From assembly GCA_964476605.1 (NCBI GenBank), contig CAYZBH010000006.1, forward strand, positions 5,476 through 69,475: a stretch of 64,000 bases of DNA, in the 5' to 3' direction. Position numbers and translations under genes: made by a program. Shown here piece by piece: positions 8,665 through 12,668 of the stretch (position 1 is its first letter; every line of letters begins with the position of its first letter). Under the pieces are notes generated by a model. That model worked only from the letters and a program-made list of their open reading frames with translations. It made no database searches and was not told the origin of the DNA. This DNA is from an uncultured Thermoanaerobaculia bacterium. GTDB taxonomy: Bacteria > Acidobacteriota > Thermoanaerobaculia > Multivoradales > JAGPDF01.

Positions 8665-10737
8665 CTACCTCGCGAGCTCTCGACCTCCGAGCCAGCTGAG
8701 GAGCAGCGGCAGGGCGAAGACCGAGAGCAGCATCGACCAGACCACGCCGAGCGAGAGCACGCCCGCGAACGAGGCCAGCCCGCGATGCGCGGTGAAGGCG
8801 AGCGGACCGAAACCCGCGAGCGTATTGAGCGCATTGATGAGCAGCGTTCGTCCGGTGCCCGAGAGCGTGCGCCCGAGGTCCCCCGCCTCGGAGCGGAAGC
8901 GGTGGGTGAGATGCACGCCGTTGTCCACCGAAACGCCGACGACGATCGGCAGCGCGAGGATGTTGAGCGGGTTGAGATCCAGGCCCAGGAGCCGCATGCC
9001 GCCAAGGAGACCGGTCATCGTGAGGGCGGTCGGGGCGAGCGCGAGCAACGTCCAACGGACGCTGCGAAAGTCGGCTGCGGCCATCGCCAACGCGAGCAAC
9101 GCCGCGAGCACGCCCGTGATGGCGAGGGCGCGCTGCGAGCGCCCGATCATGAACTCGCCGAGCACCGGCATGCCGGTGACCCCGGGATCGAGCCGGCGCA
9201 TCTCGGCGAGGAAAGCGTCGCGGAACTCGGGCTCCCAGATGTCCCCTGCCGGATAGGCGTAGACGGCGAAGCGCCCCGCGGAGTCCACGAAGCTCTTCTC
9301 GAGATCTCGCAGCTCCGCGCTCTCGGAGCCGCCCGCGAGCGCCTGGAGGCGCTCGAGGTCGAGCTCCGAGCGCACCTGCCCGACGAGCGGCGAGGCTCTG
9401 AGCTCGTTCACGAGCGCTCGCGCGGCGTTCCGGTCGGCCGCCACGAAGGCGGCGAATTGCGGCGACAGCGCCGACCGCTTCACCATCTCACGCTCCAACC
9501 GCACCGCCTCCGACCCCACCGGTTGGAGGTCGAGGTAGTCGCCGTCGAAGCGGGGCCAGGGCAGAACGATGCCGACGAGCGCCGCGCCGAGCAGGAGCAG
9601 AGTGCCGCCCGGGCGCTGGCATCGCACCAGCACGGCGCCGAAGAGGCGTTCGCGCGCTCCGCGATCGCCGGACGTCCGGCGCGGCAGCAGCGCGAGGAGC
9701 GCCGGCAGCAGGGTCACCGCCGCAACCAGTGACAGGAGGATGCCGAGCCCCGCCATCCAACCGAGCTCCGCGAAGCCCCGAAAGCCGGAGACGGTGAGCG
9801 TGAAGAGGGCGAGAGCGGTGGTGAGCGCGCCGGTCGCGAGCCCGCGCCCCAACCGGCGCACCCCTTCCGCCACCGCGCCCGGGAGCTGCCAGCCCAGCAG
9901 CTGCAGCTCCTCCGTACGATCGACGACGTGGATCCCGTAGTCGATCCCTTGGCCGAACAGGGTCGAGAAGAAGAACGCCGAGACGAGCGTCAGATGTCCG
10001 GGGACGAAGGCCGCGACGCCGAGGGTCGCCGCCATCGCGGCGAGCAACGCTCCGGTCGCCGCGAGCGGCCAGAGCCATTCGTGGAACCCCGCCACGAACA
10101 GCGCCACGACCAGCACCAGCGAGAGCAGCGAGAGGCGCGAGAGGTCGCGCTGGATGATGTCGCGATCGTCGAGCGCGTACTGCGGCAGGCCGGTGAAACC
10201 GGCGTGGATCCCCGCCGCGTCGAGAGCCTCCGCCGCGATCTCGGCCCGCACGCCGGCCACGAAGGGGGCGATCTTCTCGGCGCGGGACTCGGCGTCGGCG
10301 GGCTGCACGAAGACGAAGGCCATCCCCCGGTCGTCGGTCATCAGGTGGGGCTCGAGGCCCAGGGCCTCGAGCGTCGCATCCGGGAACGGGAGGCGGGAGA
10401 GCGCGGCGCGGACGTCGTCGCGCCGTCGCACCGCGGCCGCGATCCGGTCCGCGGCTTCGCCCAGCACCTCGGGATCTCCCCCTTCGAGCGCCACCACCAG
10501 CATGTTGGGCGTTCCGAAGCGGGCCGCGAAGTCGCGGAAAGCGGCGACCGGCGGGAGCCTCGGATCGATCAGGTCGAGATTCGACGTCTTGAGCCCGAGC
10601 CGCGTCACCGTGAGGGCGAGCGCGACCGCCACGATCGCGAGGGCGAGGACGAGCGTGACGACGGGGCGCGCCGCCGACCGCGCCGCCAGGGCGCCGAGGA
10701 GCTCCCCCCAGCGATCCCGCTCGCCCGAGCCGCTCAC
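8665..10737 (-). CDS. MMPL/RND-superfamily exporter (HpnN-like, sterol-sensing-domain type).
   Basis: 690 aa with two repeats of TM1, a large periplasmic loop and a 5-TM bundle. The MMPL-like segments GIDYGIHVVDR and VSVDNGVHLTHRF lie in the two halves. The ATG overlaps the stop of the upstream cytochrome fusion gene (ATGA at 10734-10737). Confidence 0.8.
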   Translation of the reverse strand: MSGSGERDRWGELLGALAARSAARPVVTLVLALAIVAVALALTVTRLGLKTSNLDLIDPRLPPVAAFRDFAARFGTPNMLVVALEGGDPEVLGEAADRIAAAVRRRDDVRAALSRLPFPDATLEALGLEPHLMTDDRGMAFVFVQPADAESRAEKIAPFVAGVRAEIAAEALDAAGIHAGFTGLPQYALDDRDIIQRDLSRLSLLSLVLVVALFVAGFHEWLWPLAATGALLAAMAATLGVAAFVPGHLTLVSAFFFSTLFGQGIDYGIHVVDRTEELQLLGWQLPGAVAEGVRRLGRGLATGALTTALALFTLTVSGFRGFAELGWMAGLGILLSLVAAVTLLPALLALLPRRTSGDRGARERLFGAVLVRCQRPGGTLLLLGAALVGIVLPWPRFDGDYLDLQPVGSEAVRLEREMVKRSALSPQFAAFVAADRNAARALVNELRASPLVGQVRSELDLERLQALAGGSESAELRDLEKSFVDSAGRFAVYAYPAGDIWEPEFRDAFLAEMRRLDPGVTGMPVLGEFMIGRSQRALAITGVLAALLALAMAAADFRSVRWTLLALAPTALTMTGLLGGMRLLGLDLNPLNILALPIVVGVSVDNGVHLTHRFRSEAGDLGRTLSGTGRTLLINALNTLAGFGPLAFTAHRGLASFAGVLSLGVVWSMLLSVFALPLLLSWLGGRELAR

Positions 10738-12668
10738 GAGCCCCGCTCCGCTCCCGGCGGGCGGCGGGGACCCGCGAGGCGCAGCACGAACTCCACCAGG
10801 TCGGCGACCTCTCCCGGGCGGAGCGTCTCGTGCCCCGGCATCGAGGTCGGCGGCGCCCCGAAGCGCACCAGGCGCTCGAGCTCGCGCCGCTCACCCGCCG
10901 CGTCGAGACCCGGCGGCAGGTGGATGAAGAAGCCCTTGGCGAGGTCCATGGCCGGGCGCGCGATCGACGCCGCGAGCGCTCCGTCGCCGCGCCCGGACGC
11001 GCCGTGACAAGGGGCGCAGAGCGCCGCGAAGAGGCGCGCTCCGCGCGCCGCCGAGGGGGCTCCCGTCGCGGTCTCCGGCGGGAGCGCCGCCACCTGCCGC
11101 GCGCGCTCGTCGGCGTGCCCCGCGCCCAGGCTGCCGAGATAGGCGACCAGATCGCTCCCCCGCCGCCCGTCGCCCGCGAAGAGGTCGGCATAGGAGGGCA
11201 TCCGCGAGCCGGGGATCAGAGCGCGGGGATTCGCCAGGTGGACGCGCTGCCAGAAGTCGCTCCGTCGCAGGCCGACGTTCGCGAGATCCGGGCCTTGGCG
11301 CCGCATGCCGACGAGCGGCGGCTGCTCGGCGCGATCGAGCGCGCGCGCGGGCCCCCAGAGCGCCTCGTCGCGAGTCCCGGGGCGGACGAATTGCGAGTGG
11401 CAGTGGATGCACCCCTCGGCGACGTAGACGGCGCGCCCGCGAGCGACGGCGGAGCGATCGTCGAGCGGGGACCTTCCGGCGCAGCCGGTCGCCCCGAGGC
11501 CGAGAGCGCCGACGAGCGCCGGGACCACGGCCGCTGCGAGCCACGATCCCTGGCTCTGCCGGCCTCGGACGAGCGCGAAGGTCCCGACGAGCAGCGCCCC
11601 GGCGCCGAGGACCGCCGTCGTCGGCACGCGCCCGAGATCCTGCGCCATGCCGACGCCGAGCGCCGAGCCCACCCATCCGGAGATCCCGTAGAGCACTCCC
11701 GCGCGCCACCCCGGGCGCCCTGCCGCGGGTTCCGCGAGCGCCGGAAAGGCGACGAGCGCGGTCGAGTAGATGGCAATCCCGATCGCGTAGAGCCAGGCGC
11801 CGGCGCGCGCCGAGGGACCGCCTGCCGCGAGGATCGGGAAGGCGAGCGCGAAGAGCCCCCAGGTGGCGAGGAGCGCGACCTTCCAGCGCCCGCGCTCCAG
11901 CCAGAGTCCCGCGGCGAACGCGGCGGCGAAGTGCACGATCCCTTGCACGAGGGTCCAGGCGCCACCATCCCAGGAGACCGCGGCGAGCGCGGGGGCCCCA
12001 TGGAGGACGGCGAACGCCGCCGCATCGAGCCCGACCAGCAACAGGAAGGCAATCGCCGCGGCCGCCAGCGGAAGGGTCTCGCGATTCGCGAGCGGTGGGC
12101 TCGGCTCGCCCGCCCCGCGCGGCGGCAGGAAAGCGGCCACCGCGGCGAGCAGGGCGGGCTCCCACGCCCGGAGCTCGATCGAGCCCGCGAAGAGCGGCGG
12201 CAGATTGGAGAGGAGATAGGCGAGACCGGTGCCGGCGCCCACGACGAGCGCCGGCCGACCGCTCCTCGAGAGTCGAGCCAGGTTTCCCGCGAGAGCGACG
12301 GTGAGGATCCCCACCGAGAGACCGATCGCCGCGGCCGTCGCCGCCAGGGCGAAGGGAGCGCGCGCGAAGGGCGATGCCGCGGCGACGACGGCCGCCAGCG
12401 CGAGGCCGAAGGAGACGGCGCGGGTCGCCTCGAAACGCTCGAGCCGGCGCCCCATCCCCAAGCTCGCCAGAAGCCCCGCGATCCCCATGGCGGCCATCGC
12501 CGCGCGAACTCCGTCTCCGTCGAGCGACCGCTGGAGCTGCTCGAGGAAGCCGAACTGCGCGAACAGGAGGAAGAGGTGATAGGTCGCCGCGATCGCCAGG
12601 AGCAGGCGACGATCCGCGACCAGAGCCCGCCCGATCGCAGCGAGCGCACCCCGCGCTCCGGCGCTCAC
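10734..12668 (-). CDS. Three-part fusion: MFS-like transporter domain, then a CcoO/FixO-type monoheme cytochrome c, then a second class-I c-type cytochrome domain.
   Basis: In-frame translation from a GTG at ~12668, which overlaps the stop of the small upstream gene as GTGA. It gives ~390 aa of MFS-like membrane domain ([18 protein letters not shown] = MFS motif A-like, many TM helices). Then a TM anchor plus [20 protein letters not shown]...[36 protein letters not shown], which matches the FixO/CcoO signature EGCxxCHSQ...GPDLxxVGxxxxxxWxxxHLxNPRxxxPxSxMPxY. Then a second heme site [18 protein letters not shown]...TSMP. The first ~154 codons of track ORF 10734..13130 are Arg-rich and overlap a better ORF in another frame, so I exclude them. 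Confidence 0.7.
   Translation of the reverse strand: [644 protein letters not shown]

Follow-up and report, generated by a model that had tools for sequence, protein, structure and literature searches.

In the heme-copper oxidases (HCOs), the three active-site His are kept in every family except gNOR, where an Asp replaces one of them, and O2 reduction requires a Tyr cofactor (PMC11214002). In canonical cbb3 oxidases, the CuB-bearing subunit CcoN, with its three His and cross-linked Tyr, is paired with CcoO (PF02433; PDB 3mk7_B and 8smr_F), a protein of ~200-240 residues in which a single N-terminal transmembrane (TM) anchor leads into a periplasmic monoheme domain; the dihaem subunit CcoP has an anchor of its own. 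Fused forms are on record: PRK14486 and PRK14485 (fused CcoO-cytochrome c; CcoNO) place a class-I cytochrome c behind CcoO in one chain and accompany a CuB-containing CcoN, and qNOR offers a precedent in the C-family/nitric oxide reductase (NOR) branch for a cytochrome-type subunit fused to a large membrane domain, with a changed electron donor (PMC11214002). A 12-TM protein belonging to the major facilitator superfamily (MFS), CcoA/CalT, is also tied functionally to cbb3-type systems, as a separate biogenesis factor. Here we analyse a 64,000-nucleotide stretch of an uncultured Thermoanaerobaculia bacterium (GenBank assembly GCA_964476605.1, contig CAYZBH010000006.1, positions 5,476 to 69,475; hereafter the window), in which a 644-residue open reading frame (ORF; 10734-12668, minus strand) encodes an MFS domain, a TM anchor, a CcoO-type monoheme domain and a class-I cytochrome c domain as one continuous chain. 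We propose that this fusion is the combined CcoO- and CcoP-equivalent electron-transfer subunit of a cbb3-derived heme complex devoid of copper, with a conserved MFS cavity that probably binds a ligand, a reading to which we give about an even chance.

The cytochrome half of the fusion is readily recognised (all parts of the chain lie on the minus strand, and residue conservation refers to an alignment of 78 sequences from independent genomes). Residues 405-522 (11103-11456) form a CcoO/FixO monoheme domain, which matches residues 49-171 of CcoO from the Pseudomonas aeruginosa and P. stutzeri cbb3 oxidases in the PDB (phmmer, E 7e-21) and exceeds the Pfam FixO gathering score (78.8 bits vs 29.6, E 5.4e-22), the match covering only profile positions 52-142 of 219. 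It shares with CcoO the CxxCH, R(R/K)xGPDL and (S/R)MP(S/T)Y motifs, the last containing the Met sixth ligand; in the window these include CIHCH (11397-11411) and SRMPSY with the axial ligand Met490 (11199-11201), and C420, C423, H424 and M490 are kept in 78/78 sequences. Over this domain, the fusion is ~39% identical to a divergent Ralstonia CcoO; in the alignment with canonical CcoO, the L046 row is out of frame and is to be disregarded. The chain differs from CcoO in the ~370 residues of MFS fold ahead of the domain, in a partner that is not a canonical CcoN, and in the replacement of the FixO C-terminal part by a linker and a cytochrome c domain; scores against the full-length CcoO families TIGR00781 and PRK14487 are far below their cut-offs (75.8 vs 200.65 bits and 81.9 vs 218 bits). 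The C-terminal domain (residues 539-631, 10776-11054) is a class-I cytochrome c that is CcoP-like but monoheme, with a CAPCH motif (11004-11018) and Met610 (10839-10841); C551, C554 and H555 are kept in 78/78 sequences and M610 in 77/78. It matches Pfam Cytochrom_C (1.5e-13) and Cytochrome_CBB3 (1.1e-10), and residues 524-575 match CcoP in the PDB. Unlike the dihaem CcoP, the fusion has only one CxxCH beyond the CcoO domain, and this part has no anchor to itself (TIGR00782, 27.3 bits vs 179.95). The best NCBIfam match of the fusion is PRK14486 (4e-24), yet at 85.6 bits against a cut-off of 447; PRK14486 and PRK14485 differ in having no MFS domain. The comparison with qNOR also reaches its limits here: there the catalytic subunit is the fusion partner and the heme c site is lost, whereas the present chain retains its two c hemes and is joined to an unrelated MFS fold.

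The N-terminal part (residues 1-367, 11568-12668) has 12 helices. Pfam MFS_1 scores below threshold on the fusion itself (21.5 bits vs 33.4). The MFS assignment is upheld despite this because MFS_1 is found in 20/47 homologues at E<0.01 (best 3e-8) and because the AlphaFold2 model (pLDDT 86.1), in which 12 helices are followed by a 13th, the anchor, and by two cytochrome domains, aligns in Foldseek over ~390 columns with solved MFS structures (SfMCT 6hcl, OxlT 8hpk and NorA 9b3k; E ~2e-6, target TM-score 0.55-0.65), with further full-length MFS matches to GLUT3 and LacY, among others. These matches and the 12 helices ahead of the anchor agree with the MFS fold, defined by two six-helix bundles. 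The N-terminal part is not CcoN-like, as it would be in a CcoNO fusion. MFS domains from six species gave no match to the NCBIfam MFS subfamilies. Helix 13 (residues 374-393, 11490-11549), a helix in the AlphaFold2 model, corresponds to the CcoO-type membrane anchor. It is weakly conserved (mean top-residue frequency 0.30, no near-invariant position) and, given the standard N-in/C-in topology of MFS proteins, would bring the chain into the periplasm from the MFS domain's cytoplasmic end. Pfam, PDB matches and AlphaFold2/Foldseek thus bear out the domain order of the first-pass annotation (MFS, CcoO, second monoheme cytochrome c), and every peptide string that it quoted is present in the translation.

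Could the fusion be an assembly chimera, or a frameshift joining a transporter gene to a cytochrome gene? The DNA has a GC content of ~72-76% (about 72% for the window), so that long ORFs arise easily in every frame, and the coding frame was settled by homology. The maximal ORF (10734-13130, minus strand) spans 798 residues; the GTG at 12668 is the plausible start, giving the 644-residue product, and no other start agrees with the conserved first helix, since the next in-frame one (ATG 12497) would remove the conserved first helix, and this GTG shares four nucleotides (GTGA) with the stop of the preceding small ORF. A public protein (P0001) is identical to the fusion. No frameshift or stop separates the membrane and cytochrome parts, and the protein is collinear in at least 78 independent genomes from several phyla, closed genomes included. 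When 1.84 billion representatives were searched exhaustively with a profile, 573 clusters (50% identity) came out at E<=1e-30, and in the best 150 the representatives match the profile over its full length, almost always in one stretch. The chance of an artefact is, in our opinion, negligible.

The fusion is widespread. A search of protein clusters at 90% identity found 629 homologues among the scored candidates, and the 120 of them that were listed are mostly near full length (~560-760 residues, 44-64% identity); PGAP and JGI name these homologues "cbb3-type cytochrome c oxidase subunit II". When one genome per species was scanned, tblastn confirmed 551 stretches, though a part of them may be plain CcoO; the best 80 of these 551 loci, to which all operon and neighbour counts below refer, are all near full length. 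They come from Acidobacteriota (Thermoanaerobaculia, Holophagae and Acidobacteriaceae, the last with the cultured Terriglobus roseus DSM 18391, Telmatobacter bradus and Acidipila rosea), from Verrucomicrobiota (Opitutaceae, Luteolibacter, Akkermansiaceae and Methylacidiphilaceae) and from one Cloacimonadota metagenome-assembled genome. In T. roseus, the fusion is Terro_4250 (UniProt I3ZMI6). Variants occur: P0310 and P0381 are shorter forms (~510-556 residues) without the last cytochrome c domain, and P0257 carries a C-terminally fused hydrolase of the metallo-beta-lactamase (MBL) fold, a protein that is also a frequent operon neighbour. Neither Pfam nor NCBIfam holds a family dedicated to the MFS-CcoO-cytochrome c architecture, and full-text literature searches gave no description of it or of the gene cluster, as would suit the new oxidase/reductase-type scaffold suggested at first reading. 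Calling the fusion "unprecedented" is right in this respect and wrong in another: hundreds of genomes, that of cultured T. roseus included, carry full-length relatives. The components (CcoO, cytochrome c, MFS and HCO fold) are recognisable; their combination, with the degenerate active site described below, is undescribed in the sources searched.

The fusion has a partner that the first-pass annotation, although it argued that CcoO depends on CcoN, had overlooked. Two genes upstream and in the same translationally coupled operon lies a gene for a divergent CcoN-like protein of the HCO fold (13069-14409, minus strand; 446 residues, 12 helices), so that the CcoO domain is not orphaned. A CcoN-like gene stands immediately upstream of the fusion in 73/80 loci, that is, in every locus with sufficient flank. 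As a single sequence, the window protein gave nothing useful against Pfam, NCBIfam or the PDB, and Pfam COX1 fails on it and on 39/47 homologues while matching the other 8/47; JGI often labels the 296 homologue matches "cbb3 subunit 1". The family profile, searched against the PDB, finds only CcoN (E 8.5e-8), and a global profile-profile alignment with canonical CcoN/FixN (six sequences from plasmid records) has a probability of 99.2% (E 1.4e-18, 403 columns); a local hhalign against one CcoN sequence aligned helices 1-4 only. These profile and profile-profile matches place the partner in the C-family/NOR branch of the heme-copper oxidoreductase fold, and it has the 12-helix subunit-I fold with His ligands for low-spin and high-spin heme. 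In one metagenomic protein, P0365 (1130 residues; locus L091, 6001-9393), a CcoN-like part (42% identity, E 5e-56) and an MFS-CcoO-cytochrome c part form a single ORF; the profile of the small protein encoded between the two genes in the window finds no counterpart in its 180-residue linker. P0365 sits within an operon of YceI, synthase and ABC-exporter genes. It is a single case and possibly a frameshift; if real, it would be Rosetta-stone evidence for a complex.

The active site of the partner departs from that of CcoN (counts refer to 65 members of the CcoN-like family from several phyla; window numbering). The ligands of the hemes are largely in place: H72 (CcoN H60, low-spin heme b) is kept in 65/65 and H342 (CcoN H345, heme b3) in 64/65, and H344 (13378-13380, minus strand; CcoN H347, the second heme b ligand) is His in 33/65, being Leu or Phe throughout the Acidobacteriaceae clade. 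Also retained is a loop close to the heme propionates and to where CcoO makes contact (SSGK-FLDW, resembling SSKEYAE-EW of CcoN). The copper site is another matter. The helix-6 CuB ligand, CcoN H207, corresponds to T214/V216, with T214, kept in 64/65, at or beside the H207 position; no His occurs there in 65/65 sequences, and the window protein has none in residues 190-256. Of the helix-7 pair, H271 (CcoN H257) is kept in 58/65 and H272 (CcoN H258) in 42/65, the latter being Arg (R272) in the window protein. The cross-link Tyr251 corresponds to residue 261, which is F, C or Y. The full set of three CuB/FeB His, one from helix 6 and two from helix 7, is thus absent, and so is the Glu of the NOR FeB site. 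In these respects (the missing helix-6 metal ligand and cross-link Tyr, and an HH pair that varies) the partner differs from CcoN and from NorB of cNOR and qNOR alike, and it has invariants of its own (H32, T214, Q276, E398 and an NPxSGGPTG loop). The CcoN-like family fits none of the families listed in PMC11214002. Two further features may be added. The Acidobacteriaceae clade that has no H344 instead shares E257, C261 and R266, while Thermoanaerobaculia and Verrucomicrobiota keep the His; and M347, one turn from residue 344, is kept in 58/65 sequences.

The database names would have the fusion be subunit II of an ordinary high-affinity cbb3 oxidase with an extra membrane domain, its partner being a divergent but functional, CuB-containing CcoN: PGAP, JGI and UniProt speak of "cbb3-type cytochrome c oxidase subunit II" and "subunit 1", the fusion keeps an intact CcoO domain, the fold of its partner is of the CcoN type, and H271/H272 could be remnants of the HH pair. 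Moreover, T. roseus, whose sole listed type-C HCO is the CcoN-like Terro_4248, grows at 1-2% O2 (PMC5900883). The missing helix-6 His, the incomplete HH pair and the failure of COX1 speak against such an enzyme, as do the near-universal three His, with gNOR the only exception, and the Tyr that O2 reduction requires (PMC11214002), here not conserved. Because the helix-6 CuB His and the cross-link Tyr are absent, the complex is not a canonical copper-containing cbb3 oxygen reductase, and we regard the ordinary oxidase as quite unlikely.

What the MFS domain contributes may be read from its conservation. D215 (12024-12026), H246 (11931-11933), Y151, N155, Y294, Y301, S302, W332 and S335 are kept in 78/78 or 77/78 sequences at identities down to ~30-40%; Q223 is kept in 75/78, and many aromatic residues of the domain are conserved as well. 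Near-invariant positions fall in TM1, 4, 5, 7, 10 and 11 (3-8 in each), while the peripheral TM3, 6, 9 and 12 have 0-1 each. Helices 1, 4, 7 and 10 line the cavity of MFS structures. This pattern suggests a functional central pocket rather than a docking surface, and hints that the domain is a ligand pocket and not a passive anchor; its cavity probably binds a ligand. One candidate cargo is copper: CcoA, an MFS transporter, is needed for cbb3 biogenesis (PMC3266609, PMC8406296), and the MFS domain might be an importer of the CcoA/CalT type fused to an oxidase subunit and delivering copper for CuB assembly. An invariant His in helix 8 and a heavy-metal-type sensor pair beside the operon would suit this idea. 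However, the motifs that define these importers, MxxxM in TM7 and HxxxM in TM8 (PMC8406296), are absent from the fusion family, where the consensus is L-W-L-D-S-A-A-F in TM7 and V-H246-x-x-A250 in TM8, and the partner has no complete CuB site to fill. CcoA/CalT differ further in being separate from the enzyme that they serve, the MFS domain being here covalently joined to a cytochrome, and we judge a fused copper importer to be highly improbable.

A second role for the pocket was raised at first reading, namely that the MFS domain transports a solute, its activity depending on whether the attached c hemes are oxidised or reduced. The conserved central cavity and the covalent joining of the domains in all members are in keeping with it. 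Yet neither MFS motif A (GxLaDrxGrkxxl, between TM2 and TM3; only G65 of the region is kept across the 78 sequences) nor the charge-relay residues are conserved, simple gating fails to explain the constant presence of a CcoN-like gene, and P0310 and P0381 do without the C-terminal cytochrome c. Nothing specific to the idea came out of the analysis, and a redox-gated transporter appears improbable to us.

The gene neighbourhood points to isoprenoids. Five genes on the minus strand follow one another in the order prenyl synthase, CcoN-like protein, small protein, fusion and RND exporter, each linked to the next by a four-nucleotide GTGA overlap (14406-14409, 13069-13072, 12665-12668 and 10734-10737), and these four consecutive overlaps argue for translational coupling. 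The synthase (14406-15467) is a short-chain polyprenyl diphosphate synthase of the farnesyl/geranylgeranyl diphosphate (FPP/GGPP) type (Pfam polyprenyl_synt 4e-30; FPPsyn/CrtE-like NCBIfam matches below cut-offs), its real start probably lying downstream of the start of the maximal ORF. Its sequence contains SASLVFDDLPSMDD, with Ala five residues ahead of the first DDxxD; CrtE-type GGPP synthases also have Ala at this position, and E. coli IspA has Tyr. The small protein (12665-13072, 135 residues, ~4 hydrophobic segments), whose GTG at 13072 overlaps the CcoN-like stop and whose stop overlaps the fusion start, has no Pfam or NCBIfam match and is conserved in loci L001-L004 and in T. roseus (Terro_4249). 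The exporter (8665-10737), whose start overlaps the fusion stop codon, is an RND lipid exporter of the HpnN/MMPL type (Pfam MMPL; NCBIfam HpnN 1e-85, below cut-off). Just upstream of the five genes, a YceI-like periplasmic polyisoprenoid-binding protein is encoded (15350-15970, minus strand; Pfam YceI 2e-19).

Among the 80 loci, a prenyl synthase stands beside the system in 64 and YceI in 42, upstream or immediately downstream of the fusion (directly downstream in Acidobacteriaceae); an MBL-fold hydrolase is a neighbour in 24 and the RND exporter in 12, in Thermoanaerobaculia and Holophagae. A MacB/LolCDE-like ABC exporter takes the place of the RND exporter in locus L091 and in T. roseus, where the order is synthase, MacB/LolCE-like permease, LolD-like ATPase, Terro_4248, Terro_4249, Terro_4250 and Terro_4251 (YceI). 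Some Thermoanaerobaculia loci add an aromatic prenyltransferase of the UbiA/MqnP type (TIGR01475, 293 bits, above cut-off; 4/80 loci) and a UbiE-like methyltransferase (3/80). UbiA, methyltransferase and MBL genes were sought in the window and none was found, so that the UbiA link is clade-specific rather than core. Heme O synthase was considered for the neighbouring UbiA and rejected, as cyoE_ctaB scored 62 bits vs 293 for the TIGR01475/MqnP-like family. Following the RND exporter, where related loci hold UbiA, methyltransferase or MBL hydrolase genes, the window has an alpha/beta-hydrolase gene (7750-8640, minus strand).

Divergently from the operon are encoded an OmpR-type response regulator (16110-16796, plus strand) and a sensor kinase (16793-18160, plus strand), whose top NCBIfam matches are the cztR_silR_copR and cztS_silS_copS subfamilies, both below cut-off. 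This CopRS/CusRS/HprRS-like pair adjoins the operon in Thermoanaerobaculia, Acidobacteriaceae and Verrucomicrobiota, lying divergently upstream in Acidobacteriota and directly downstream in Verrucomicrobiota; it is found at 2566-4693 (minus strand) of the T. roseus locus L046 and at ~11.8-13.9 kb (plus strand) in L016, L027, L033 and others.

Such neighbours raise the question of whether the enzyme runs in reverse or detoxifies. It could be a prenyl-quinol:cytochrome c oxidoreductase that holds the quinol in the MFS cavity or in the binuclear pocket, now emptied, or it could use cytochrome c to reduce H2O2, NO or superoxide at a heme b3 free of copper, a His/His or His/Arg pair being distal. 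In either case, envelope, metal or oxidant stress would induce the enzyme. The regulator pair recurs beside the operon in three phyla, YceI and the prenyl synthase belong to the operon, with UbiA/MqnP-like and UbiE-like proteins added in some loci, and the aromatic MFS cavity holds an invariant set of Asp, His, Tyr and Asn, which we take to resemble quinol sites such as that of cytochrome bo3. In the partner, H271 and its neighbour 272 (H or R) occupy the distal positions, and His/Arg is the classical peroxidase distal pair. These arguments are, however, purely inferential; the regulators are assigned below curated cut-offs, UbiA and methyltransferase genes are confined to the few loci given above, and we know of no MFS protein that serves as a quinol site. 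We consider an enzyme of this kind rather unlikely.

Returning to the fusion as the electron-transfer subunit of a copper-less, cbb3-derived complex, a scheme may be drawn from the residues and the gene order. In the fusion, a 12-helix MFS-fold domain precedes the equivalents of CcoO and of half of CcoP; the chain would act as electron-transfer and scaffold subunit, the core being formed by the CcoN-like protein together with the small four-helix protein. The CcoO domain would dock on the CcoN-like subunit as in cbb3 and, by homology with cbb3, electrons would travel between a periplasmic carrier and the membrane hemes by way of the C-terminal heme c, the CcoO heme c, the low-spin heme b and the high-spin heme b3. 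The reaction at heme b3 would not be canonical O2 reduction, and would be copper-independent or make use of a different distal site. The ligand of the MFS pocket might be a hydrophobic prenyl- or quinone-like molecule, the best candidate that the neighbourhood offers, made and moved by the prenyl synthase, the YceI lipocalin and the lipid exporter. The adjacent CopRS/HprRS-like envelope sensor is the probable activator of the operon. It is tempting to speculate that the system is an unrecognised branch of the HCO superfamily that lost CuB, recruited an MFS domain and, with the prenyl synthase, YceI and the exporter, performs redox reactions at the envelope, with an isoprenoid or quinone-like lipid as substrate or participant, rather than aerobic respiration, either as a cytochrome c-linked prenyl-quinol/quinone oxidoreductase or as a copper-free heme b3 reductase of an oxidant under metal or oxidant stress; this wider proposal is tentative, and we would put its chances well short of even.

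Several observations weigh against our proposal. The loss of motif A makes classical alternating-access transport doubtful and is silent on what the MFS domain actually does. That the fusion and the CcoN-like protein associate is suggested by synteny and by one fused ORF, P0365, which may be a frameshift artefact. The second heme b ligand is replaced in the whole Acidobacteriaceae clade, so that some members may not follow the simple cbb3-like electron path. Last, the isoprenoid link comes from gene neighbourhood only, in a window without UbiA or methyltransferase genes.

The system also bears on how oxidases are counted. In their comparative-genomics study, Eichorst et al. (2018) credit T. 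roseus with a type-C (cbb3, high-affinity) oxidase, Terro_4248 (PMC5900883, Table S5). This published "HCO type C (cbb3)" gene of Terriglobus roseus KBS 63 is the CcoN-like member of the fusion system (locus L046, 8230-9585): it has T214, A216 and L344, and thus no helix-6 CuB His and no second heme b ligand (the H347 equivalent), nor does it have the conserved cross-link Tyr. Because these residues are missing, microaerobic respiration deduced from such matches in soil Acidobacteriota and Verrucomicrobiota may be unsafe. If the copper-free reading is true, the "cbb3 oxidases" counted in many genomes of the two phyla are something else, and a large cross-phylum family on the HCO scaffold, with one or two active-site His missing and an MFS-fused cytochrome subunit, would widen the known roles of this scaffold. 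The existence of cultured hosts (T. roseus, Telmatobacter bradus and Acidipila rosea) makes the question directly testable.

The rest of the window was surveyed more lightly. No canonical heme-copper oxidase gene was seen among the ten large ORFs scanned. Downstream of the alpha/beta-hydrolase gene, a 626-residue ORF (5785-7665, minus strand) resembles, by eye, a subunit of 2-oxoacid:ferredoxin oxidoreductase. Beyond the sensor kinase are encoded a 1452-residue surface-type protein with DUF11, Calx-beta and EEP domains (18157-22515, minus strand) and a protein with NuoE-type 2Fe-2S and NuoF domains (24964-26958, plus strand), and kdpA and kdpD lie at 49558-56122 (plus strand).

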